64,000 nucleotides of DNA from Curvularia clavata (GCA_023920165.1 CP089281.1:558001-622000), one strand, 5' to 3'. Positions 21,264 to 52,553 are shown, counted from the stretch's first letter. Made by a program: numbers and translations. The notes: a model not told the origin generated them from the sequence alone.

Positions 21264-22846
21264 GCGAGTACCGCGGGGATAGCCGGTAGCGTGTTTTCTA
21301 GAAGATGCGTTTATTGGACTGGTGCATGGCAGCGGAGAAGGGCAGCGTTTGCATTCATGACAGGTTATAGGGAGGCTTGTAGAGTCACCTTTCCCCATTG
21401 CCTCGTTCTTTAGACTACGGACGCATGTATAATAGCCACAAGGTTGTTCTGTTTATCTTGGACAGTTTACGTTTGACATGTCGTGTGCTCATAGTGACTG
21501 GTACCGTCTTCGCTGACGGGAGTGGCGGGCTTCTAGAATTGACCCGGGATCCTGGATAGTGAATTTAGACGCAGAGTGCACATGGTCACACGGCGCGTAG
21601 ATCTTCAACATCTTGTCATCAATGATGGTGGGGCACTAATATATGTATATTTGGACCGTAGACATGGTGGCGAGCATGTACCCATGAAACACGCGATTGG
21701 GTGCGTATCAAGTATAGCCGGTTTCAATAAGGTCCTAGATGCAAGCTCTTTACTTGTCAATGCACAGGATGTACAAAGTAAGCTCGTGTCTCGCAAAGCT
21801 TCTGTGCAGTAAAGCACTGCTCTCTATCCACGCCCGTTGAGGCCGGGCTGGTATTCCCCGGATTTTTCGGACCGCTAGCTCGGGTTCCAAAGGCGGAAAT
21901 GGCTAGTCGCATGTATGCTCGGGATGTTAGAAACACCATCTTGCATCTGCACACAGGCCACCCTCGTCGTTATAAACCTTGCCCACCAGAGCATTACGCA
22001 ATACTTCGCCAGTCAAAGTGCTGCTCTCCGCTCGCGCCTTACATGGCACTATCTCGGGATCCTCGAGAGGGCTCGCAATAGCGCGCCGGTTCCCGTATCG
22101 CCACATCACTAAGGACAGGGTTGTGCGAGACGAAGGATTGCGGCGTGGAACGCCAGGCGGCCCTGGATCACATCGTGTCTTCGTATCTTTCTGCGCAGCC
22201 GAGCGTCTCAGTCTCTAACAACCGGTACGGGTAGAGGTCTGCTTGCCAGCATAGACCTGCCACCAACACACGAGGTCCTGCCTCCACCAACAACCCGCCA
22301 TGTACGCAGTCAGATGCAGGCAAAGCATCAGCTAACAGGCGCCGTTCAGCGGCAGGTTGAGTACTTGTCCATTCAACCATGCCTCTCCGTCTAATCTCGG
22401 ATCTCTATACACCAATCGTTCTTCTTAGCCTACATGTAAGCGAGGCCGTAAATGTGCAAATACCCGGTCATCATGCGCCCGGCAGAACGCATCCGCCGCG
22501 GAATCCCCTTGCACTGTGCGACCAAGCTACCAGTCTGCAGTTTAGGATCTGGCATGTCTCAGTGGTGGTTTGCCTGCTGCCGAGAACATATCAACCGCAT
22601 GGGTCGCGTGGAGGGCTTGATTAAATTAAATTGTCCTCCGCCTGGCGCTGCTCCACTTCGCATACCCTGCAAGCTACTCCGCGTTCCTGCTTTTATGTGT
22701 GTTGGTGGTTGTTAGATGTGCGGGTGATGCTGTCCAGCTCCTCGGGCGCGAAGACGGCTTCGTTGTTACACTCCTTTGTCGACGCTTGCTGTGTTGCTTC
22801 GACAAAATATCTTTCTTTCGTTTCCTGGTGGTGAACTGAGGGCAAG

Positions 22847-24909
22847 ATGGATCATACGCACAAGAGGGATGTGCACACCTCGCACACGGAGCGGAGTAGT
22901 AGTACCATGGAGATCCGCCAGGTTCAGAATGTTGCCTTTGCCGATGCAACGGCAAAGGCCAACGTCAGACCTTGGACAAAGTCCATGTTCAAGGTTGGCT
23001 CTACGAATGCTCTTTCCATGCATGGCACTTACGACGAAACAGCTGTACTTCTGCCTCTTTATTGCCACGCTCAACTCATGCATCAACGGATACGATGGAT
23101 CACTCATGGGCGCCATCAACTCTTACCATCAATACCGCTCATATTTTGGCTTTGACATTGACGAGGGTACACCAACAACTGGAATCGTCTACGCAATCTA
23201 CACCATAGGCAACTTGGTCGGATCGTTTGTAGCCGGCCCAGCTACAGATTTCTGGGGAAGGAAATGGGGAATGTTCATTGGAACCTCAATCATCATCATC
23301 GGCGCCTGTATCCAAGCTACATGTGTAAACCTCGGCGGCTTCATGGGTGGACGTTTTATCCTTGGTTTCGGTGTTGCTATCACATCGACCGCAGGCCCGG
23401 CTTATGTTTCTGAGATGGCACACCCTTCCTACCGGGGTGTTTGCACTGGCATCTTCAACACATTCTGGTATGTTGGCGGAATCCCTGGATCCTTTGTGCC
23501 ATACGGAACGAGCAACATACCTGGCACCCAATCCTGGCGAATCCCAGTATGGCTTCAACTAATCTTCGCGGGCATCGTGTTCTGCTGTTCACCATTCTTG
23601 CCTGAAACACCCCGATGGCTCATCGCTAATGACCGGCACGAAGAGGCGCTTAATACTATGGCACGCTTACATGGCGAAGGCGACCGTGATTCGCCTATCG
23701 TCAAACTTGAATACAAGGAGATGGTTGAAGATATCAGTGTCACAGGTTCCGACAAGCGCTGGTGGGACTACCGTGAGCTGTTCAACTCCCGCGAAGCCCG
23801 CTACAGAACTATGCTTGTACTCGCAATGGCCTTCTTTGGTCAATGGTCAGGAAACGGACCAGTCAGCTACTACTATCCGACAATGCTTCAGGGTGCCGGT
23901 ATCAACGACAATCACACACGCCTCCTCTACAACGGCATGCAAAACATTGTTTCTTTCAGTGGTGCCATCTTGGGTGCCATATACACCGATTCTTGGGGCC
24001 GCCGCCCTCAATTGCTTGTCTCTACAGCACTGCTCGTCTTCGTTTTTGCCATTGTATGCGCACTTGTGGCTACCAACTTGAAGACAGGACCCGACGGCCA
24101 ACCCATCTATCTGGGCAACAATCGAACACCTGAGATCAAGAGACCGGGTCAAGCCAAGGCTGTCATTGCCTTTGTCTTCATTTGCGGCTTCATTTACAGT
24201 GTAGGGTACACTCCGTTGCAGCAGCTCTATCCCGTCGAGTGTTTGCGGTACGAATCCCGAGCTAAAGGCATGGCTTTTTATAACTTCTGGGTCAACATTG
24301 CCAATTTCTACAATACTTTTGTTACCGGAATCGCCTTTTCCGGTGCAGGTTGGAAGGTATGTTGTCTTTTAACTGAAAAAACTATTCATGTTACTATTGT
24401 ATCCTTATACTCACATGAACGAACAGTACTATCTCCTCTTCATCTTCTGGGACATTTTCGAATTCATCTTCATCTACTTCTTCTTTGTCGAAACCAGGCG
24501 CCGCACCCTCGAGGAAATCAGCGACATCTTCAACGCGAAGAAGCCCGTCAAGCACTCGCTCAACAAGACAAGCATCATGGTGCATGGAAACGGCAGGGGC
24601 GTCACCGAGATGCTGGACAAGGAGGAGAGAGTCATTGAGCGGGATTTCGCAACCGCAATGTATGGCCGTAGAAGATCGAGTCAGTATGGTGCTGCGAGTA
24701 TACGAGATAGCGGGGCAAGTCAGGGCGAGCTTATTATTAGAGATGAGTTGAGAGAGAAGGTCATGGATGCAGGGAGGGGCAGTGCGGAAAGCGATATGGC
24801 GAGGGAAGAGGCGAGGTACGCAGGGGGTGGGTATGCAGGCAACGCGTGGCGGGAAGAGCGGGAGCCGTGGTATGCCACGTCGCCTGTGTCGTCGCCGCGA
24901 AGTCCATGA
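22847..24909 (+). CDS. Sugar porter family MFS transporter (lactose permease / cellodextrin transporter-like)
   Basis: NGYDGSLM, DFWGRK, YVSEMAHP, PETPRWL, QWSGNG and FVETRRRTLEEI motifs. Introns 22994-23042 and 24357-24426. Confidence 0.92.
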
Positions 24910-41325: not shown

Positions 41326-43018
41326 AAAGGCAGGGCAGACTGCACGATAACTTGGATGCAAGATAGTAGGAAATCAAAGACCAAGATTGGTCATGTATCT
41401 GCAATTCGCCGCAAAGACACAGTGAGCGTGATTACCATTTTGCGAAAGAGGTGTGTCATTGTGCGAGACATATTGTTGGTAAGACGAGGCCGATCAGAGA
41501 CGGTTGACAAAAAGATTTGCGGGGGACGCGCGTTGAGGCTACGCAGGCGGTCAGGCCTAACCAAGATGACAAAGGCGGTTCTAGAGTGTTCTCAATCTAC
41601 TCCACGATTGATAGTTGTCGACAAAAGCACTTTTTCTCTCTCCAAAAGCAAGCGGTATGTTTCACTGATTAGAATACACACATAAAGTAGCAAGTATAGC
41701 GGGAGCATGTACACAGCTGAGCGTCTACGTGGTGTGATACGCCTCAAACGAGTCATGAACCCAGATCAGCATCCGCTGTCCCTTCTTCTCCAGTTTTTCT
41801 ACCTTGATACAGTTTAGCTCATCAGCTGGCACGGGAAGTGGAGGGGGTGATGGGAACAAAAAAGAGAGAAAAGGGAAAAGAGAGTGACCAACGACGACAC
41901 AGCCTAAAAAAGCCACACGACACAGACACATCAGTCTAAAAATAAAGATCGGGCATGGTGGGTTTGGGAGGCTAGACAGAATTGGGAGTAGTGCAGTGAG
42001 ACGTTGGGGGCCGGATGGAGGTTTTTGTTGTCAGCGTCTGTGTGTGCTGGGCACGTGTGGCGGTGACAGATGGAGGCTCAGCGATACAGAAACGTGCCTA
42101 GTAGGTAGCAGTTGGGCCGGGTGGAGCCAGTCCAAAGAGTGGTTCGTCAAGTAAAAGCGCCGAAGGAGATGTACGGTACGTACTTGGCGAGGCGGATGAG
42201 GGTAGGGCCGAGGCGTATAGTGTGCGTTGAAGGATGACGGAGCGAGAGCGCTGAAACGCAGTGTCAGGATTTTCTCTTACATGCCTCCATACCTTGATGC
42301 TCAGGACGAGACTTGGCGTCATGATGAAGTATATGCATTCTAGACGATACATACATGAACTAGGAATCCAAGGGTTTGTCCATGTACAAGTACGCAACCA
42401 TGCGTCCCAAGTGCTGCGAGACGGAAGCCAGCGATTCCACGCGGCGTTGGTTGTGGGCCAAGATGATGGGCAAGAGGAGCAGATTACATATGTCGTGAGG
42501 CTCAGCAAACGTCAAGCCAACCATGGTGATTTCACGCAGCTGGCTGTGTCAGCACTACAATCCACACCTGTCGCAAGCTCAGTGAGGCTGGTCAAGACTA
42601 ATCACCGCCCGTTACCAAGCCAAGGCCAGCCACTTGGATTCCGCTGCGCACTGACCACCAAAAGACACGCGCACCAACTGTACGGCCACTCAGCCCCCCT
42701 CGGCTGGGCACCGTTTACCCTGCGCATTTCAGCTGCGGCCTTGGGGTTTGCCCTATTATCTGCTGGTTCAAAAGCCTGGTTCATCCAACCCGTCAGTTCT
42801 TTTTTATCGCTCTCGCTGCACTCGTCTCCTCCACACATCTCAACATCCACGGGTTCTTGCTCGTTGCTCCCGTGACTTGCACCTGCCATCTCGACCCTTG
42901 CCAGCCCATTGCCCGTGCGCTCGCTGTGTGACATCAGCCACCTTCTACTCACAGTCCCGCAACACCACAACAACACCTCTACACACGACCGGACGGTTTT
43001 TCTTTTACCACCGCAATC

Positions 43019-44123
43019 ATGGGAAAAGTCGGCAGATTCGCTTGTATCATCACGCCCATGGCGCTGACCCTCGCATCCTTGATATGCTTTGTCATGGTGA
43101 TGCTGGGCCAAACACCATGGAAGGGCCACAGCGCTCCAGCAACTGCCCTTGGGCGCGAGCTCTACTTTGTCAAGGTATGTCTAAATCACATGTTCCTTCT
43201 CGTCTTCATAGACATGATTGCTAACCTACAAACAGGCTGATACTGCCAACATGACGCTCGACTCACAAACCATCCTCGACAATCTCCCCGACGGCATTGA
43301 GCCCAACAATGACTTCCTCGAAGCCCTCCGCGGCAAGGCCGAATCCAAAGAGCTCAAAGACTTTTACCAAGTCGGTCTCTTCTCCTACTGCGAGGGCGAC
43401 ACCGACGCCGAGGGCAAGGACAAGATCACCTACTGCTCGCCTCGCAAATTCCAGTTCTACTTTGACCCCCTCAAGGTTTGGGGTATGAACGGCACCAGTC
43501 TGCAGGCCGCCCTTGGTGACAAGTACGACGACGGAATGAATGTGTACAAGAAGGTTGCTGGCTGGATGAACTGGGCTTTTGTCATTGTCATTGTCTTGAC
43601 CCCCATTGAGTTTATCGTTGGTTTCTTTGCTATCTTCTCGAGGTGGGGTAGCTTCGTCACTACCATCATTTCTACGGTACGTTTGTCCGCCTTTTTTTCT
43701 TTTTTCCCCCGCACTTCGTCCTGGAACAGTTTTGTTGACTCTTTTCTCCATTAGGCCCAGACTGTCTTCGCCATTGCCGCTGCCGCAACTGCTACGGCCA
43801 CTTACGGTACACTCACGGGTGTATTCAAAACCGCTCTTGAGCCATATGACATTGACATCGACATGGGCTCCCAAATGCTGTCTACCCTCTGGCTCGGTGT
43901 TGCCTTCTCTATTGGCTCAGGTTTCTTCTGGCTCATCAGCGTCTGCTGCTGCAGCGGAAAGAGCTCCCACAAGAAGATGGTCGTTGAGAAGACTCCCTAC
44001 ACCTATGAGCGTGTCGCAAGTCCTGCTTTTGGCGGCCAACAGGGTCACCAGATGCAGCAGTGGCCCAGCAGCCACAAGGAGACGCCCCAGACTGCTTACG
44101 AGCCGTTTAGGTCGCGTGTCTAA
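43019..44123 (+). CDS. Sur7/PalI-family (claudin-like) membrane protein
   Basis: N-terminal TM, loop motif DFYQVGLFSYCEG...YCS, three further TMs and an SVCCCSG tail. Introns 43175-43235 and 43677-43754. Confidence 0.9.
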
Positions 44124-44475
44124 ACAACTAGCCGTTTGGCTACTCCATCACCGTCTTTCTACAGACTTGGATACTTGTGCCTGTGTTATGGCACCATAAC
44201 GACTTGTATGACCAGTTAGTTGTGCATGCTTGGGTTGTGTTTTCATCCTTTTTATTCTCTTTCTGGCGAGGTTTATACCCCCCCTTCTATCTACATGACT
44301 TGGAAATGGCGTTGTTGAATTGCATCAATGGGTTGTTTTTGGATCTTGGTGAATCTTTTCTCTGGTATATAGTAGTATACCATCATGCTAGGAAAAAGCA
44401 GGCATCACAGCATCAGAGCCGACTGAGTGGTCTGGCGAAGAGCTGAATAGAGAAATGCGTGATTCGTCCTATCTA

Positions 44476-44555
44476 TGTCTTTTAAGGGGCTTTTGTGTGA
44501 CATCAACAGAAGGTGGTTTTCTTGTGCTGTTCATACCAAGAGGAAAAATTTAAAC
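44476..44555 (+). repeat. Direct repeat, copy 1 (80 bp)
   Basis: TGTCTTTTAAGGGGCTTTTGTGTGACATCAACAGAAGG... aligns without gaps to 49364-49443 with 11 mismatches in 80 nt (hand count), 10 of them transitions. Confidence 0.92.
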
Positions 44556-45263
44556 CACGTTCATCCCTGCGTAGGGGGACACCCCATGTGCCGGGACGCT
44601 TTTTCGTTAAGACCTTCGGCGTCAAGCCAGCGCGACTGCACCAAGTCAAGCTCAATGCAGATCGATGGTGCAACTCTCCCACCTCAGTAATTTCCGATTA
44701 AGAAGAGCATGGTCTTAGGCGTGCTAATGGCTGACTGATCACTACTATTAACTTTCTATAAGTACCCCTTTGTTTACTCCTAATAATAGGCGTTTGTTAA
44801 GTAACTACTTAGAGGACTAGAAGGGAACTGTAGAGATTAAAGGTTAAGAGGATTGCCAGTTCTAAAGGTTAGATTCAAGTAAGAAGCGCGCCTTTTAGTA
44901 GTTTCTGCGCGTAGACAGTAAGATCGCTAGAACTTATCTACACAAACATAGGGCTGTTGCCGCTTCTAGTATGTAGTAGCGTACAGCAGCGCGCTCAGAT
45001 ATCTATGTATCGTACTGTATTGAAATACGCGCTTGGCTTGTCCAGGATCAGCTCCTTAAAATAGCCATGCAACAAGTCCATTGGTCAGATTTGCTGTGCC
45101 ATGCAGCCTCACATATTTACCAGCTATCTACACGTAGCCTACTTGATGTGCTTCTATACGACAGAGACTTCTCCTACAGTCCTGCGACGTTCACCTCTGC
45201 CAGCCTGTGTCGCGCGCGACAACCGAGTCTGCTAACATTCTAGACAAAGCATGCTAAAACACA

Positions 45264-48200
45264 ATGCGCCTTCTAAAGCGTCTCGCAGCAGACAGCAGCT
45301 TCGAGTTGACGTTTTTCAAAAACGACGACACGGTTCCTCCATACGCCATCCTCTCACACACCTGGATAGACGGCCAAGAAGTTACATACGACGAGCTGTT
45401 GGCGGGAGCAGGCGCGGATAAGCACGGCTATGCTAAGATCCGCTTCTGTGGCGAGCGAGCGGCAGCTGACGGTCTCGAGTACTTCTGGGTAGACACCTGC
45501 TGCATTGACAAGTCTAAGAGCGACGAGCTGAGCACAGCGATTAACTCCATGTTTCGCTGGTATCAGCGCGCTGTTAAGTGCTATGTATACCTAACAGACG
45601 TCCTAGTGCCAGATGAGGTTACCGACGCCGAAGCCTTCCGCATATCGTGGCAGCAAGCTTTTCAGTGCAGCCGGTGGTTTACACGAGGCTGGACGTTGCA
45701 AGAGCTACTCGCGCCAGCTAGCGTCGAGTTCTTCGCCCGGAACGGCAAGCGGCTAGGCAGCAGAATCTCACTGGAACAGGAAATACATAGCATTACCGGC
45801 ATATCTATCCATGCGCTGAGAGGCCATAGCCTTGCTGAGTTTAGCGTTGAGGAGCGGATAAGCTGGGCAGCGAAGCGCACAACGACACTAAAAGAGGATA
45901 AAGTGTACTGTTTGCTTGGCATTTTTCAGGTCTTTCTGCCGCTTATATATGGAGAGGGAGAGGAGTATGCAACGCTGCGTCTCAGAGATGAGATACAGAA
46001 GCGACAGCAAGGACGGAAGAATGTAGATGTGCAAGATCTATCCGGTGTGTAGTTTGGATAGCATCGCACTACACAGACCACACTTAATAGCTAATGACCT
46101 ATAATCTTAGTGTCACTACCTTTCCCACGAAATGAGCTCTTCGTTGGACGAGAGAGCCAGCTCCAGTCGATCGAACGAGCCCTCTTATTACCCAATACTC
46201 ACCGACGGATGACTATATATGGACTAGGAGGATGTGGGAAATCAGCGCTTGCTCTTGAGTTTGCGTATCGTGCACTTGTGGGAGACGCTAAACGCTTAGT
46301 CTTCTGGGTGCCAGCCATGAGCCAAGAGAGTTTCAAGCTTGCCTATCGCGAGATTGGAATCCGTCTTTGTATACCAGGCATCAGCGATGACAACGCGGAC
46401 GTTCAGCGACTTGTGAAAGAGACGTTAAGTTCAGGAAACATAGGCGATTGGTTAATGGTCGTCGATAACGCTGATGACTCTCAAGTCTTGGTGGGAGTGG
46501 ACAACGAAAGCGATGGGTTGGCTCGACCAATCGACTATATTCCGCATAGCAATAAAGGCGCAGTTCTCTTTACTACTCGTAGCAGGAAAGCGGCTATAGA
46601 CTTGACTCAGAGCAATGTCCTCGAAGTAAACGACATGGGCAAAATTGAGGCCAGGCAGCTGCTTGCGCGGCGAACGACGAAACAAGAATTGTTGAACGAC
46701 GAGGCGGCAGTTGACATATTGCTTGAGACACTCACAAGCTTGCCGCTTGCTATCGTACAGGCTGCCGCTTTTATGAGCCAAAACAATACATCCGTCTCCG
46801 AATACCTATCGCTACTCCAGTCTGCTAGCACGAAATCCGAGCTCTTTCGCGAGCAGTTTCAAGATCCGAGCACATACCGCAGTATGCATAGCACGATTGC
46901 AAAGACATGGCACATATCTTTTGAGCAAATCCAGAGACAAGATCCTCTTGCAGCAGAGTACCTTTCGTTTATAGCATGCATTGATCGTGTTGGCATTCCT
47001 CAATCGATATTGCCACCAGAAAAATTTATTATACAGCAAGTAAAAGCACTTGGAACGCTAACAGGATATGCGTTTATTACAGAGCGCCAGCAGACTGTGC
47101 CAGGATCTGGCGAGAGGTTTTTTGATATGCACCGACTAGTGCACATGGCGTTAGGCTGGTGGCTAGAGGGCCATGGTAAGCAGGCGGACTGGGCAGACAC
47201 GGCAGCAGCCCGAGTTGAAGAACTAGTGCCGGATCTTTGGCATGAAGGAAGAGAAGTATGGGGCGCGTACCTTCCACATGCAAAGCATGTGGCTGAACTC
47301 GTTAAAATTATGGATGGCGCAAGGAGTGCTTCGATCTTGGAACGACTCGGCCGATGTCAGATGAGTCTAGGGCAATACGCATCAGCAATAACGTCGCACC
47401 GAGAAGCGTCGTCCTTGAGGAAGGAGATACTAGGGCTTGAGCATCCAGATACCCTGACGAGTATGAGCAATTTGGTGTCAGTACTCAGCAAGCAGGGCAA
47501 GTACGAAGAGGCTGAGAGGATAAACCGACAGGAGCTAGAGTGCACGAAAAGGGTGCTTGGTCCTGAGCATCCAGACACACTGACAAGTATAAGTCACTTG
47601 GCGTTAATACTTGACAGACAGGGCAAGCACGAAGAGGCTGAGATAATGAACCGACAGACACTAGCGCAGCGTGAGAAGGTGCTAGGTCCTGAGCATCTCT
47701 CTACGCTCACAAGTATGAGTAACTTAGCAGGTGTGCTTAATATACAACGCAAGTACTACGAAGCTGAGGCGATGAATCGACAGACACTAGCGCGGTATAT
47801 AAAGGTGCTAGGTTCTGAGCATCCCTTTACGCTAACGAGTATGAGCAACTTAGCGTTAGTGCTCGACAGCCAGAACAAATACAAAGAGGCTGAGATAATG
47901 AACCGACAGACGCTAGCGCTGCGCGAGAAGGTGCTGGGTCCTGAGCATCCAGATACACTAACGAGTATGAACAACCTAGCAGGAGTGCTAGAAAGGCAGA
48001 GCAAGTACAAAGAGGCTGAGGTGATACACCGACAAACGCTAGAACAGCGCGAGAAGATACTTGGCTCTAGACATCCAGATACACTCACGAGTATGGGAAT
48101 CTTGGTAGGAGTGCTTTGTAGACAGGGCAAGTACGAAGAGGCTGAGGCGATAAGCTGGCAAACACTGGCGCAGCGCGAGGAGGTGCTGGGTTCTGAACAT

Positions 48201-48497
48201 CCAGATACGCTGACTAGCGTCTACGGCCTTGCACAAATTCTTGCCCAACGGCATCGTGTAGAAGAGTCTTTACAACTGTACCAGAGGGCATCCGCTGGAT
48301 ATGACGCCGTTCTTGGAGAAGGTCATCCTAAGGCCTTAGCGTGTCGCCGACGTTATGCTGATTTACGCGCATCGCAAGAGCAGCAGCTTAACTATGCGCC
48401 TAGTACGCTACAAAGTGGTGCAGGAGAAACTACGAAGAAGACATCGAAATTGTCACGCGGGCTAGCAAAAATTGGTATTAGGGGCTCAAAGCATTAA
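45264..48497 (+). CDS. Fungal NLR: HET - NB-ARC - TPR (~1055 aa)
   Basis: HET motifs (YAILSHTW, FWVDTCCIDK, INSMFRWY, WFTRGWTLQELLAP). Intron 46045-46110 (GTGTGT..GCTAAT..TAG) joins in frame to PFPRN. Walker A GLGGCGKS, Walker B LMVVDNAD, LPLAI, MHRLV and 42-aa TPRs follow. Confidence 0.93.
47430..48311 (+). repeat. Seven tandem 126-bp (42-aa) TPR units in the NLR sensor domain
   Basis: LGxEHPDTLTSMxNLAxVL..Q.KY.EAE units begin at 47430, 47556, 47682, 47808, 47934, 48060 and 48186, with a partial unit at 48312. Confidence 0.93.
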
Positions 48498-49363
48498 GGA
48501 GGGTGTACTGGCTTATACTTTTCTGCAAAAAGCTATCGCAGCCATGCTGCAAGTAGCTCAAAGAGCTATTTCCTGCCTACCACTCTGCACTACCTGTAGT
48601 AAGAGTCCATTCAATCAGTCTGTGGCAATAGAATCTGCACTCTTGCCTGTCTCTCCCGTCTGTGCTCCCGTACCGTAACAATGGGTAGTTAGTCTACTTC
48701 GCCTTTCTCGAACATTGCTAGAAGTTCGATGGTGCAAGTCATTAACTTTTCTAATGCTTGTTACACTTATGAAGCACTTGAGTCCTTATTCACTAGCCTT
48801 CCTGCGAGTTGTGTCTCGTTCTGAGTAGTAGGATCCTACAACCTATCTATTAGTTGTCTGTCTAGGATAGGTAAATCGCACCTTTTAGTACAATACAGTA
48901 CATATATATCCGATTACGCTAATATACGCTACTATATACCAAAAGCAAGGCTAGCTTTATACCCGTACAAACAGGTTCTAGTAATCTTGATGTTTATACG
49001 GGGAAATTGCAAGAGTACGCACTGCACACTTGAAATTAATCTTTAGAGGATGCAGTCATGAACTCTGCCATCTTAGCTTTCTTTCTTGCCTACTTAGCTA
49101 TCTACAAATGTTCGTCGTTGCGAAAAAAAGAACCAAGGGGATGTTAGAGGAGAGTCGATTGATGGCCCTGATAGAACGAGCGACAGCATAATCAACAATG
49201 CACTTTTTGGCATTGAAAGATGATGTACTGGAACAACAAAAGCTGTAGAATGGATGCGTACCGCGTTTGTCTTGACATAAGCGCGCTGGCGGGATGTTCT
49301 GAGTTTCTAGAAGAAAAGGTGTCCCATCACACCGTGGGTCCCAGCACGTAGAGACGGGCTTTT

Positions 49364-49443
49364 TGTCTTTTGAGGGGCTTTTGTATGATATCAACAGAAG
49401 GCGATTTTCTTGTGCTGTTCAGATCAAGAAGGAAAATCTGAAC
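49364..49443 (+). repeat. Direct repeat, copy 2 (80 bp)
   Basis: TGTCTTTTGAGGGGCTTTTGTATGATATCAACAGAAGG...; ~86% identical to 44476-44555. Confidence 0.92.
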
Positions 49444-49771
49444 ACATATGGTAGTCGAAGAACATGAAATGTCCCATATATGTAAGGAGATGTACCACAC
49501 AGCCTTTAAAATCAGTATGAGAACGCAGCCACACTCACGGCGAAGCAAAAGTAGAAATAAAAATTTGAATATCTCTGCATATTTATCTATCCCACATTCA
49601 AATACCAAAGTCTCAAACGTATCCATACACACATTCAAATGCACATACGCACAAAAGCCATAGGAGCTCAAGGCCAAACCTTATAGCATTCAATTCAACC
49701 CAACTCAGCCTTTTCCGTTTCACTCAGCCTCTGAGTCCTCATGCACCCTCAACTCGTCTCCCACAACGAAC

Positions 49772-52553
49772 TTATGATTGCTCATGGGTCCCCACAAACC
49801 TGGGCGGAAGATCCAAATCCCAGCTGGGTCTCTCCACAAGCACCACTTCCGGCGCATGAGCACTATAATCACCAGAGACGGGTACAATACCGAGAATAGG
49901 TCGGTACTTGAACGTGTGCCACCAGTGCTCGCTGCGTTTGGTGCCGTTGACAACAGTAGTGTCTTCTGTCTCAGCAGTGGTAGTGTTATCTTGGCTTGTT
50001 GTTCTGCGAAGGAGGGCGAGGGGTTGATGGGTAGTTTCTGTGTCGTCGCCATCCTCCATGACGTTGTCTTCGTCGTTGTCGTCCTTGGAGTCAAGCGGAC
50101 GACTGACATCGACCCATTTCTGTCTTCCAGCCTTGTCACTCTCATCGCTCTGGAACTTGCGCATCTTCGTGACGGGCACTTCTTTCCGGGGAATGACATC
50201 ACCCGCGCCAGAGTTCTGCTTCAACAGCTGCTCGCCGCGCTTGCGTTTCTTGCCAGCGTGGTCGGACTCGGAAATGGAGAAATCGCGAGTTAGATCAAAC
50301 ATGAAGAGCCATTTTTCGCCGTAGAGCCAGATCCGTTGTTGCGACGAGGAAATGTCCCAGATGCAGCCCTTTGCGGGGAGATCGAGTTGTTTGTACTCGC
50401 GTGGGTAGCTGGAGGGTGGGTTGCGTCTTGACCATTCGGAGAGGCGGCCGGAGAGGACATCGAAGAGGTAGAGTTGGTGCTCAGCGGAAACGAGCAAGAG
50501 CTTGTACTCTGTAGCAGGTAGCTCGTGTGACTTAGGGTGCGGGTTGTTCCGGGTGGGATGGACAGCAGGATTGCCGTTGGGTTCTGGTACGGAAGATTCC
50601 AAGTTGGGCTGGAAGGAGAGCAACACAGGTGTCGAGTCTAGTCGAGGGAGGAGATGACCTGACGGGTTTCGTATCCAGTGCTGGCCAAGATATGTAATCT
50701 GCTCACTTGTCTCATCCTCTTCATCATCAGGCCCGTCCTCCTCGGCGATAGGAGCTGAATCATCAATGTCGATCTCTGGGGCGGTTTCATCTTCATGTCC
50801 TTCAATGATCCATGCATCGACGTAGCCAGCAAGATCAACAACAGCAAACGCATTGCCATCCGTTGAGAAGTCGCCATGTGCAATTGATCGCTCATATATT
50901 CCTGAAGGACCACTGAGAGGATTTCTTGTGATCGTATCGCGCTCCAGACGATGCAGAGCTTGCACCTTCTCCAATGCACGGGGCGTGTCTGCCGGATCAT
51001 CTGTCCTCACAATCCTGATCAACTTGATCTCGTCTGTGGCCAAAATAACAGCGAGCCATTTACCAGTCGACGCCATTTTCAGTGACTTTGCGCCCGCAAT
51101 TGAAGGCATCTCCAGCTTCCTGACACGTATTCCAGCCCCAGCGCTAGATTGTGGGTGTAGTAGTTGGAATAGCTTGACAGTGCTGGCTGTTGCCACAGCC
51201 AGCAATCCACCGTCTCGAGAAATGGAAACTGAGATGATGTTTTCTTCACCTTGAAGTGCGAGGCGAGCCACTACCTTGGGCTTCTCCGTACCGTCATCTT
51301 GTGGTTTCACACGCCATATACGGACTTCGGTGTTCCACCAGCTAACTAACAGTCTCGCATCCGGGGCGCTCGTTATAGGAGGAGATGGGGGCAAAGATGG
51401 GAGGCTGCGACTGAGCTCCTTTCCAAAATTTCGGATCGGCACAACAATGGGCTGTGTGTCAATACCTGGACATATATTAGCCTTGTTATGTGGGACGTGA
51501 TGGAATTGCTTTACCTCCGGTGACGACTATACTGAGCTTGTTGCCTTCGTATGTTGTCATGGCCTTAACATCGTGTTCGTGGTGCCTTTGATGCGATACT
51601 TTTCGCCACTTTCCACTCTGTCCCTGGGATGATCCCTTTTTGCTCGTGTAGAAACAGGTGCGTCGGTCCATGCCTGCGCTGAATATACCAGATCCATCAC
51701 GGGTAACAGCAAGGTCGAGCACATCCGCTTCATGTCCAGATATCCTCTGGATCTGACTGTAGTTCTTGCCACTGTAGATCCGAATGTCGCCGGTAGAGTC
51801 TCCAGACACAAAGTCGCCATTTGGAAGGCACTTAACTTTCCACACCAGAATCTCCTTGGGACCACCGTGAGGTCCATTTCCCAGAGAGATGTTCCTGATT
51901 ACATTGCCGTTTCTGGTATCGAACACCCGAATCATACTATCTGCAAAGCCAGCTAGTACCGTATGCTGGTCCTTGTATGTGATGCTCAAGGCGCGCGCTT
52001 TCTTGTTCGTGGCGCGGGTAACGAAGCGCTCAAAAGTAAGGTCGTTGTCGTCGGTAGACAAAAGGACAATTGTGCCATCAGCACAGCCTGCGACGAGCTT
52101 CTGTCGTGCATTGCTATCTTCTTTCGATGATCCTTTTGCCGCATTCTTTTGCCTAGGCTGGGCCGCAAAGCACCAGACCTCGCTGTGATTTCCGTTGGAA
52201 TGGCGGGCGGGCAGACCAGTAGTAAGATCCCATTCAGTGACGCTGCTAGAGTATCCGATGCTAAAAAGCCGCAGGCGACCCGCAATGACTCTTCCTTGTG
52301 CGTCGCGCTCATCTGGTTCCTGAGTCCAAGCCAGGCCTTCGACGCTCCGATCTTTACCACCATAGAATACCTTCTCTTGCAGCCATGATCCCTTCGCAGG
52401 ATTCCATATTTCAATGTTGCCGTTTGCGCGCCCAATAGCAAGCCTCAGCGACTCGGGATCTTGCTGTCCATGTTCGGCTTCGGGATGCGAAAAGGCGAGC
52501 GCGTTGATCGCAGATGGCGGGTAGGGCACGAAGCGTGAACGGTGGATATCCAT
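49772..52553 (-). CDS. UTP4: SSU processome / U3 snoRNP WD40 protein Utp4
   Basis: MDIHRSRFVPYPPSAINALAF start, LAIGRANGNIEIWNP, RLFSIG, HEHDVKAM and C-terminal KYRPILG..VVLVERP. Intron 51466-51514. Confidence 0.92.

Follow-up and report, generated by a model that had tools for sequence, protein, structure and literature searches.

We analysed a 64,000-nt stretch of one strand of Curvularia clavata DNA (GCA_023920165.1, CP089281.1:558001-622000), hereafter the window, whose positions are used throughout. Between a SUR7/PalI-family gene and UTP4 the window holds a 4808-bp segment (44556-49363, the cassette), in which one complete NOD-like receptor (NLR) gene is enclosed by two inverted arms, arm L and arm R, and which is bracketed on its outer sides by two copies of an 80-nt direct repeat (DR). 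We propose, with slightly more confidence than doubt, that the cassette is an old, fixed insertion of a non-autonomous DNA element of the terminal inverted repeat (TIR) type carrying the whole NLR. Contigs of four sequencing runs were aligned to positions 42000-52000 at a likeness of at least 80%; X3, X4 and X5 are DNA runs and X22 is transcript-like. An earlier sequence-only reading of the same DNA had named the flanking genes as Sur7/PalI and UTP4 and the cassette gene as HET-NB-ARC-TPR, and both identifications were confirmed, the latter by the Pfam families PF06985, PF00931 and PF13374.

The NLR is the sole gene inside the cassette and reads on the plus strand. Its first exon (45264-46043) encodes the HET domain (PF06985, E=5.6e-11) and its second exon (46110-48497) the NB-ARC domain (PF00931, E=1.5e-9) and a TPR_10 array (PF13374, E=4.8e-89, seven stretches); a GLGGCGKS stretch in exon 2 was taken by eye as the P-loop. 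The HET-NB-ARC-TPR architecture is complete in one frame that is open except for a 66-nt intron (46044-46109, plus strand), which contains stop codons and across which record 3 of X22 joins 45649-46043 to 46110-46664. X22 contigs cover the NLR over 45178-46664 and over the TPR part at a depth of about 5-14. Since their splice junctions fall at GT..AG introns in each of the three genes of the locus, they behave as transcript assemblies; X22 leaves the arms and parts of the NLR without cover, and these uncovered parts were not counted as evidence. The NLR gene is intact, spliced and transcribed. On either side of it, and outside the inverted alignment of the arms, lie a unique upstream region (45046-45263, plus strand; putative promoter and 5' untranslated region, with the transcript contig starting at or before 45178) and a unique downstream region (48498-48864, plus strand; putative 3' untranslated region and terminator).

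The TPR array (47422-48303) consists of six to seven tandem units of 126 bp (42 aa). The units are mutually only 61-75% alike, so that this is not an array of "high internal conservation" as described for Podospora NLRs in PMC13449251. Outside the locus, record 7 of X3 (12.3 kb) matches the window at 45335-45505, 46917-47231 and 47349-47475. The same genome thus has a paralogous NLR, with an identity of about 83-84% in patches and with 3476 different letters in place of 1411 of the window. Among candidate relatives of the cargo gene, this one is the nearest.

DR1 (44476-44555) and DR2 (49364-49443), both on the plus strand, agree at 69 of 80 positions (86% identity, BLAST E=1e-22), as the sequence-only reading had estimated by hand alignment for the same two intervals. 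The 11 differences comprise 10 transitions and one transversion, and the longest run of identical bases is 17. DR1 begins 8 nt past the end of the SUR7-like transcript contig (44468). A BLAST search of the 64-kb window found no third copy (other matches were of 12-32 nt, E at least 0.15), and in the X3 bin over DR2 (49348-49681) the depth was 119.1, equal to the single-contig baseline, which does not indicate further copies. Neither result gives a sign that the 80-bp unit is a dispersed repeat in its own right, a possibility that the sequence-only reading had raised against itself. A small RNA gene was considered for the DR and rejected, because Rfam gave no match at E<=1 and the tRNA scan of the region was empty. 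We regard the DR as a putative duplicated target.

In order to compare the locus with that of relatives, UTP4 loci were taken from metagenome contigs, which gave 20 loci with 42-75% protein identity to the window UTP4. The window protein equals one assigned to Curvularia clavata in its source; it is 77% identical to that of named Bipolaris and 75% identical to that of named Alternaria, and the best metagenome loci are therefore from Pleosporaceae of other genera. In all five loci that contain both genes (L011, L012 and L018, which represent one taxon, L013 and L014; three taxa altogether), UTP4 lies next to the SUR7-family gene in convergent orientation, with no NLR between them; apart from two loci described below, the others do not extend far enough or have no SUR7 gene. 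The stop-to-stop spacer is 546, 563 and 611 bp in these three taxa versus 5648 bp in the window, where it becomes 760 bp once the 4888-bp DR-to-DR unit is removed. These lengths support the interpretation that the cassette, which the sequence-only reading had also taken for an insertion, went into an ancestrally short spacer, and an NLR with both DRs in this syntenic position throughout the family is not what the three other-genus taxa have. A blastn comparison of the DR, the arms and the flanks with the 20 loci returned a single 22-nt chance match, non-coding DNA being unalignable at such distance. In two further loci of one taxon (L009 and L010) an MFS sugar transporter gene (PF00083, E=8e-77) stands convergent to UTP4 in the position of the SUR7-family gene, and a similar Sugar_tr gene lies in the window at 22728-24635, 20 kb off. 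The 3' spacer of UTP4 may be a recurrent point of rearrangement.

In the sequencing runs the site is occupied. X3 holds the entire cassette at the same place (contigs 42006-45237 with 11 differences, 45208-47857 with 24, and onward to 52000), and near-identical contigs of X4 and X5 span the junction from the flank through DR1 into arm L. The same junction is spanned by a diverged X4 contig with 60 differences and 33 gaps over 44097-44641 (545 bp), and because this contig keeps the junction, the insertion must be older than the divergence of that relative. The insertion appears fixed. Presence/absence polymorphism and excision products, both suggested by the sequence-only reading, did not appear: the three DNA runs and the diverged contig are all occupied. 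Differences between the window and X3 are not evenly distributed, as the contig over the NLR (45208-47857) has 24 in 2650, the left contig (42006-45237) 11 in 3232, five of them within 44459-44913, and the right contig (48579-52000) 5 in 3422; the cassette is several-fold more diverged from X3 than the neighbouring housekeeping genes.

Single-crossover integration leaves direct repeats of tens of bases around an insert, and the DRs could accordingly be seen as the product of a circle with one 80-bp copy that recombined into the chromosome by a Campbell-type or site-specific route. The DRs would then be homology resembling attachment sites, and the clean excision between DRs that the sequence-only reading had imagined would be the reverse reaction. 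We consider this origin highly improbable. There is no recombinase in the cassette or in the window, none of the runs contains a contig that skips the cassette, X3 gives no sign of extra DR copies and the window has none, the DR is unlike the flanks of other members of the arm family described below, and the circle could have gained its 80 bp only from an earlier occupied site. As for excision in the present, the longest identical run between the DRs is now 17 bases, which makes recombination of one DR with the other unlikely today, and no skipping joint was seen.

The inverted repeat of the sequence-only reading (IR-L, 44562-44634; IR-R, 49282-49356; about 65% identity) is weak when taken alone. 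Its local alignment score was 21, compared with 13.0+-2.1 for mononucleotide shuffles, of which 10 in 2000 reached 21; the direct-orientation control scored 11, and the repeat finder did not report these 73-75 bp. Collinear with it, an independent inverted BLAST match (44861-45025 with 49047-48883, 67% over 167 bp, E=1e-7) lies inside what had been taken as spacers. When 44556-45045 was aligned globally with the reverse complement of 48865-49363, the alignment had 301 matching, 175 mismatching and 37 gap columns (63% identity). Its score was 120, compared with -121+-14.7 for 500 dinucleotide shuffles (z=16.4, none reaching the score) and -118 for the same-orientation control, and no real 499-bp segment from the window, of 490 compared, scored as high. 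There is a real inverted repeat of about 490 bp, made of arm L (44556-45045, plus strand) and arm R (48865-49363, minus strand), and the 73-bp repeat is its outer tip. The comparison with shuffled sequence thus leaves the short repeat marginal and the long arms clear. The earlier claim of inverted homology was genuine in kind and too short in extent, and the "TpA-rich spacers" of that reading belong to the arms, being inside the end-to-end inverted alignment.

The inverted homology starts within about 10 nt of the DR on both sides, and the arms abut the DRs. Of their terminal features, the one best preserved is a pair of GGGAC motifs, spaced by 17 nt and lying at a nearly equal distance from both termini. 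In arm L the pair forms GGGAC-N12-GGGAC at 44576-44597 (plus strand; positions 21 and 38 from the terminus), and in arm R it appears on the plus strand as GTCCC at 49321-49325 and 49338-49342 (positions 22 and 39 of the reverse complement). GGGAC occurs 41 times and GTCCC 44 times in the whole window.

The two repeats of the cassette differ in their degree of divergence. The Kimura two-parameter (K2P) distance is 0.53 between the arms versus 0.16 between the DRs, and transversions are found at 69 of 476 sites in the arms versus 1 of 80 in the DR (P=5e-5). This transversion excess suggests that the divergence between left and right arms predates the insertion, and the simplest reading is that the left and right ends of the family would have been this different already when the element inserted, rather than having decayed since. 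The DR divergence of 14% is of the same order as the mismatches, about 11% besides gaps, in the diverged contig that spans the junction. Together with the likeness of at least 80% between arm R and other copies (see below), these values fit a single period of activity.

Repeat-induced point mutation (RIP) was examined as a cause of arm decay. The transitions with a usable context fell in the CpA<->TpA context in 22 of 71 cases versus a background of 31% (p=0.52); there was no directional bias between the arms, and neither was enriched for RIP product bases. In composition arm L is RIP-like (TpA/ApT 1.70, composite RIP index (CRI) 0.85) and arm R is not (CRI 0.03), and the region past the NLR stop also has RIP-like dinucleotide ratios. 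RIP makes only transitions and cannot explain the 69 transversions of the arms. On the context test, the direction test and the transversion count, RIP was rejected.

Two independent lines of evidence, read depth and matches to open reading frames (ORFs), relate arm R to sequences elsewhere. In all three DNA runs the depth was in excess in the bin 49014-49347 of arm R (310 versus about 120 in X3, 71.5 versus about 13 in X4, and 26.8 versus 1-2 in X5). The baseline depth of X3 is flat at about 120, and at 49134 three of its contigs end loosely. An excess of this size amounts to about three additional copies at genome-like depth. Three other X3 contigs are at least 80% like arm R over 49134-49347, compared with a likeness of about 58-62% between arm R and arm L in the outer columns. 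The outer 215-320 bp of arm R are multi-copy.

For the second line, the query was the 87-codon stop-free frame of arm R (49101-49361), used in an exhaustive phmmer search against 1.84 billion representatives. There were 11 matches at E<=1e-3, ten of them ORFs of 53-124 aa on ENA or JGI contigs, and these ten ORF clusters occur on 1-10 contigs each, the longest contig being 86.6 kb. The ten ORFs have an extended block in common with the window. The alignment of one member, P0250, runs from 49104 out to 49358, 5 nt short of DR2; both GGGAC motifs are retained in the frames of P0250 and P0246, and in neither does the sequence beyond the terminus have any likeness to the DR. Arm L was matched weakly by another member, P0251, at 44588-44677 (E=0.12). 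A profile of the family run against six-frame translations of the window and the loci found arm R alone, whose own score follows by construction since it is a member of the profile. The depth and the ORF matches, both lines being for arm R, support the assignment of the arms to a dispersed repeat family.

The arm-R frame was rejected as a real protein. Among 13 family members the best Pfam match had E=0.037 and was not credible, a search for a longer form of the protein found none, which by itself is weak evidence, and the best ESM Atlas score was 0.76, with low recognition; on these three grounds we take the ORFs to be gene-caller translations of non-coding repeat DNA. Since a copy enters the protein record only if its frame is open, the open frames are uninformative on coding. 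The top phmmer match, P0243 (647 aa), agrees with the query over a 21-residue stretch only and was set aside as unrelated. It is built of ten or more units in tandem, each about 57 aa long and with a short YCCSAFVLFTAKKF-like stretch that the arm-R frame also has, and is probably a translated tandem repeat. In the minus-strand frame, arm R at 49281-49349 contains two similar tandem sub-motifs, CWDPRCDGTPF and LCQDKRGTHPF, and P0246 seems to lack about 30 codons between them. This arrangement in the outer arm hints at subterminal direct repeats, as they occur in transposase-binding regions.

The same identities raise the question of whether the arms came from different copies, as would be expected if two family members in opposite orientation flanked the NLR, either moving together with it (IS-like or alternative transposition) or inserting independently beside a resident gene. 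That arm R is closer to the three X3 contigs than to arm L would fit such a composite. We judge it to be quite unlikely, because a complete small element should have TIRs of its own, and for this the arms failed: head-versus-tail scores were 19 and 16, compared with 14+-2 for shuffles, so that they would be incomplete elements, and the idea of each arm as a complete element was rejected. Independent insertions would also leave unexplained why the DR abuts both outer ends, and a resident NLR is absent from the spacer in three other genera.

With respect to the setting, the left flanking gene (42829-44468, plus strand) belongs to the SUR7/PalI family (PF06687). Its splicing, taken from record 1 of X22, removes introns at 43173-43233 and 43676-43753, its stop codon ends at 44123, and its transcript contig ends at 44468. 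In the frame of the spliced contig the last exon (43754-44123) ends at 44123 and not at 44199, the end of the longest mechanical ORF (43606-44199). The right flanking gene (49611-52553, minus strand) is the WD40 gene UTP4, named in the source "U3 small nucleolar RNA-associated protein 4", with its stop codon at 49772-49774, an intron at 51465-51513 and a transcript contig that reaches 49611. From the two transcript ends, the target was a short untranscribed gap between convergent 3' ends. Housekeeping genes make up the remainder of the window, among them those for pyruvate kinase, RPN2, mRNA triphosphatase and a cyclin. Of the 28 long ORFs that were scanned outside the cassette in the 64-kb window, none matched a transposase or recombinase family. 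The non-coding parts of the cassette are without coding relics, as none of 24 short frames matched Pfam, and the Pfam scan of the cassette frames agrees with the sequence-only reading that no transposase or recombinase is inside.

The geometry of the locus is like that of a transposon, with inverted arms and a direct duplication abutting them outside on both sides, and delivery of the NLR by a transposon-like vehicle is likely. The length of the duplication calls for another explanation to be weighed at this point, namely repair of a break without transposase, by which an NLR segment bounded by old transposon relics at its donor locus would have been copied or ligated, through end joining or template switching, into a staggered double-strand break between the convergent genes, the fill-in of overhangs of about 80 nt becoming the DR. 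A widely staggered break fits 80 bp better than concerted transposition with its 2-11 bp. Arms that had already diverged (K2P 0.53 versus 0.16) and tips without extra conservation are in keeping with relics, neither transposase nor partner was found, and the site lies between convergent 3' ends. Yet on both sides the insert ends no more than about 10 nt from where the inverted homology ends, and at arm R the family homology seems to end there as well; a random fragment is not expected to end at both element termini. We therefore hold break repair to be somewhat unlikely.

In the TIR-element interpretation that we prefer, the ends of the element would be the two ends of the dispersed repeat family, bracketing an intron-containing NLR together with its own upstream and downstream regions. 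A complete host gene would stand in place of the transposase, which would have been supplied in trans. The element would have landed in the short untranscribed gap where the 3' ends of the SUR7-family gene and UTP4 converge, after the split from Pleosporaceae at the level of Alternaria and before the relative with about 11% mismatches (plus gaps) branched off, at a time when its arms were only distantly alike. Integration would have duplicated 80 bp of target. Because this is far beyond the 2-11 bp of concerted DDE transposition, we suppose that the break may have been widely staggered, or that the two ends may have been joined in an uncoupled manner, with repair then filling in the single strands.

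Several observations weigh against this interpretation. Although a TIR is present at both ends of the insert, no target site duplication (TSD) of the 2-11 bp that characterise superfamilies lies next to the arms, and 80 bp is outside the range usual for DDE transposases. The 6-7 nt that separate the DR from the short repeat of the sequence-only reading differ between left and right. Active TIRs are usually most conserved at their tips, whereas identity per 50 columns is flat along the arms (46-66%) and the tips are not best kept. The window scan and the arm-frame searches found no autonomous partner, transposase or superfamily signature; no run shows a contig that skips the cassette or a polymorphic empty allele; and X3 has the NB-ARC part in a single copy, on one contig at a depth of 126.9. 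The evidence for other arm copies comes from the depth excess and from translated ORFs, and some of the ORF matches could be orthologues instead of dispersed copies.

A bolder extension would be that the arm family is an undescribed fungal DNA element that makes target duplications of about 80 bp and is able to carry a complete, functional NLR into gene-dense regions of the core chromosomes. We think this unlikely. If it were true, duplications of about 80 bp would imply an integration unlike that of known DDE transposases, by independent nicks at the ends or by a replication-coupled route. Our literature searches found no DNA-transposon duplication of similar length, which shows only that those searches had no match.

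The sequence-only reading had assigned the cassette to Pack-MULE-like elements. Pack-MULEs of plants have TSDs of 9-11 bp, usually carry gene fragments and depend on a MURA-type transposase. The cassette resembles them in being non-autonomous, in its long TIRs and in having host gene sequence aboard, but none of those three features was found in it. Since the NB-ARC part is single-copy in X3, the one genome-like run, the cassette is not an amplified "Pack" family; no 9-11-bp TSD and no transposase were found, and the assignment is not supported. Starships are tens to hundreds of kb long and have a tyrosine-recombinase "captain" as their first gene. They share with our locus the movement of fungal NLRs as cargo of a mobile element, but there is no captain gene in the window and the 4808-bp insert has the NLR as its only gene. 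NLR cargo in these giant elements is described in PMC9156397 and PMC13449251.

The same fungal class has precedents, in two cases of host genes between TIR element ends. In Pyrenophora tritici-repentis and Pseudocercospora fijiensis, histone H3 was transduplicated by hAT elements with TIRs of 18-20 bp and TSDs of 8 bp (PMC6710886). As in the cassette, a whole host gene sits between class II transposon termini, and the copies can stay functional. Those elements have a hAT transposase domain and tens to hundreds of copies, whereas the cassette has no transposase and is single-copy, with arms of about 490 bp and a duplication of 80 bp. ToxhAT is a 14-kb TIR-bounded element that carries ToxA in Bipolaris, Pyrenophora and Parastagonospora (PMC6737239); the same paper gives 2-11 bp as the usual range of transposase TSDs. 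ToxhAT is likewise a cargo-carrying TIR element of Pleosporales, including the sister genus of Curvularia, and it has long TIRs (74 bp) and lacks canonical TSDs. It differs in having a hAT-like transposase gene, several genes and no flanking duplication and in lying in transposon-rich islands; the cassette has 4.8 kb, one gene, an 80-bp duplication and a housekeeping region around it. We thus see the cassette as akin to the cargo-carrying TIR elements of Dothideomycetes, and unusual in having a whole NLR as its sole cargo and a very long flanking duplication.

For NLRs as such, a 2026 study of Podospora (PMC13449251) reports presence/absence between species, occasional translocation and flanks enriched in transposable elements, which "might be involved" in the moves. 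This is a statistical association without a defined vehicle, whereas the cassette has defined arms and a duplication and represents one old event. Fungal NLRs turn over very fast and have transposable elements enriched beside them, and the vehicle for their small-scale moves has not been defined. As one old fixed event, the locus is not evidence for ongoing NLR mobility. If other copies of the family share the long duplication, an unusual integration mechanism would be indicated. What the locus offers is a physically defined example, in which an intact, expressed NLR lies between the ends of a repeat family in a housekeeping region, with a clear insertion scar.

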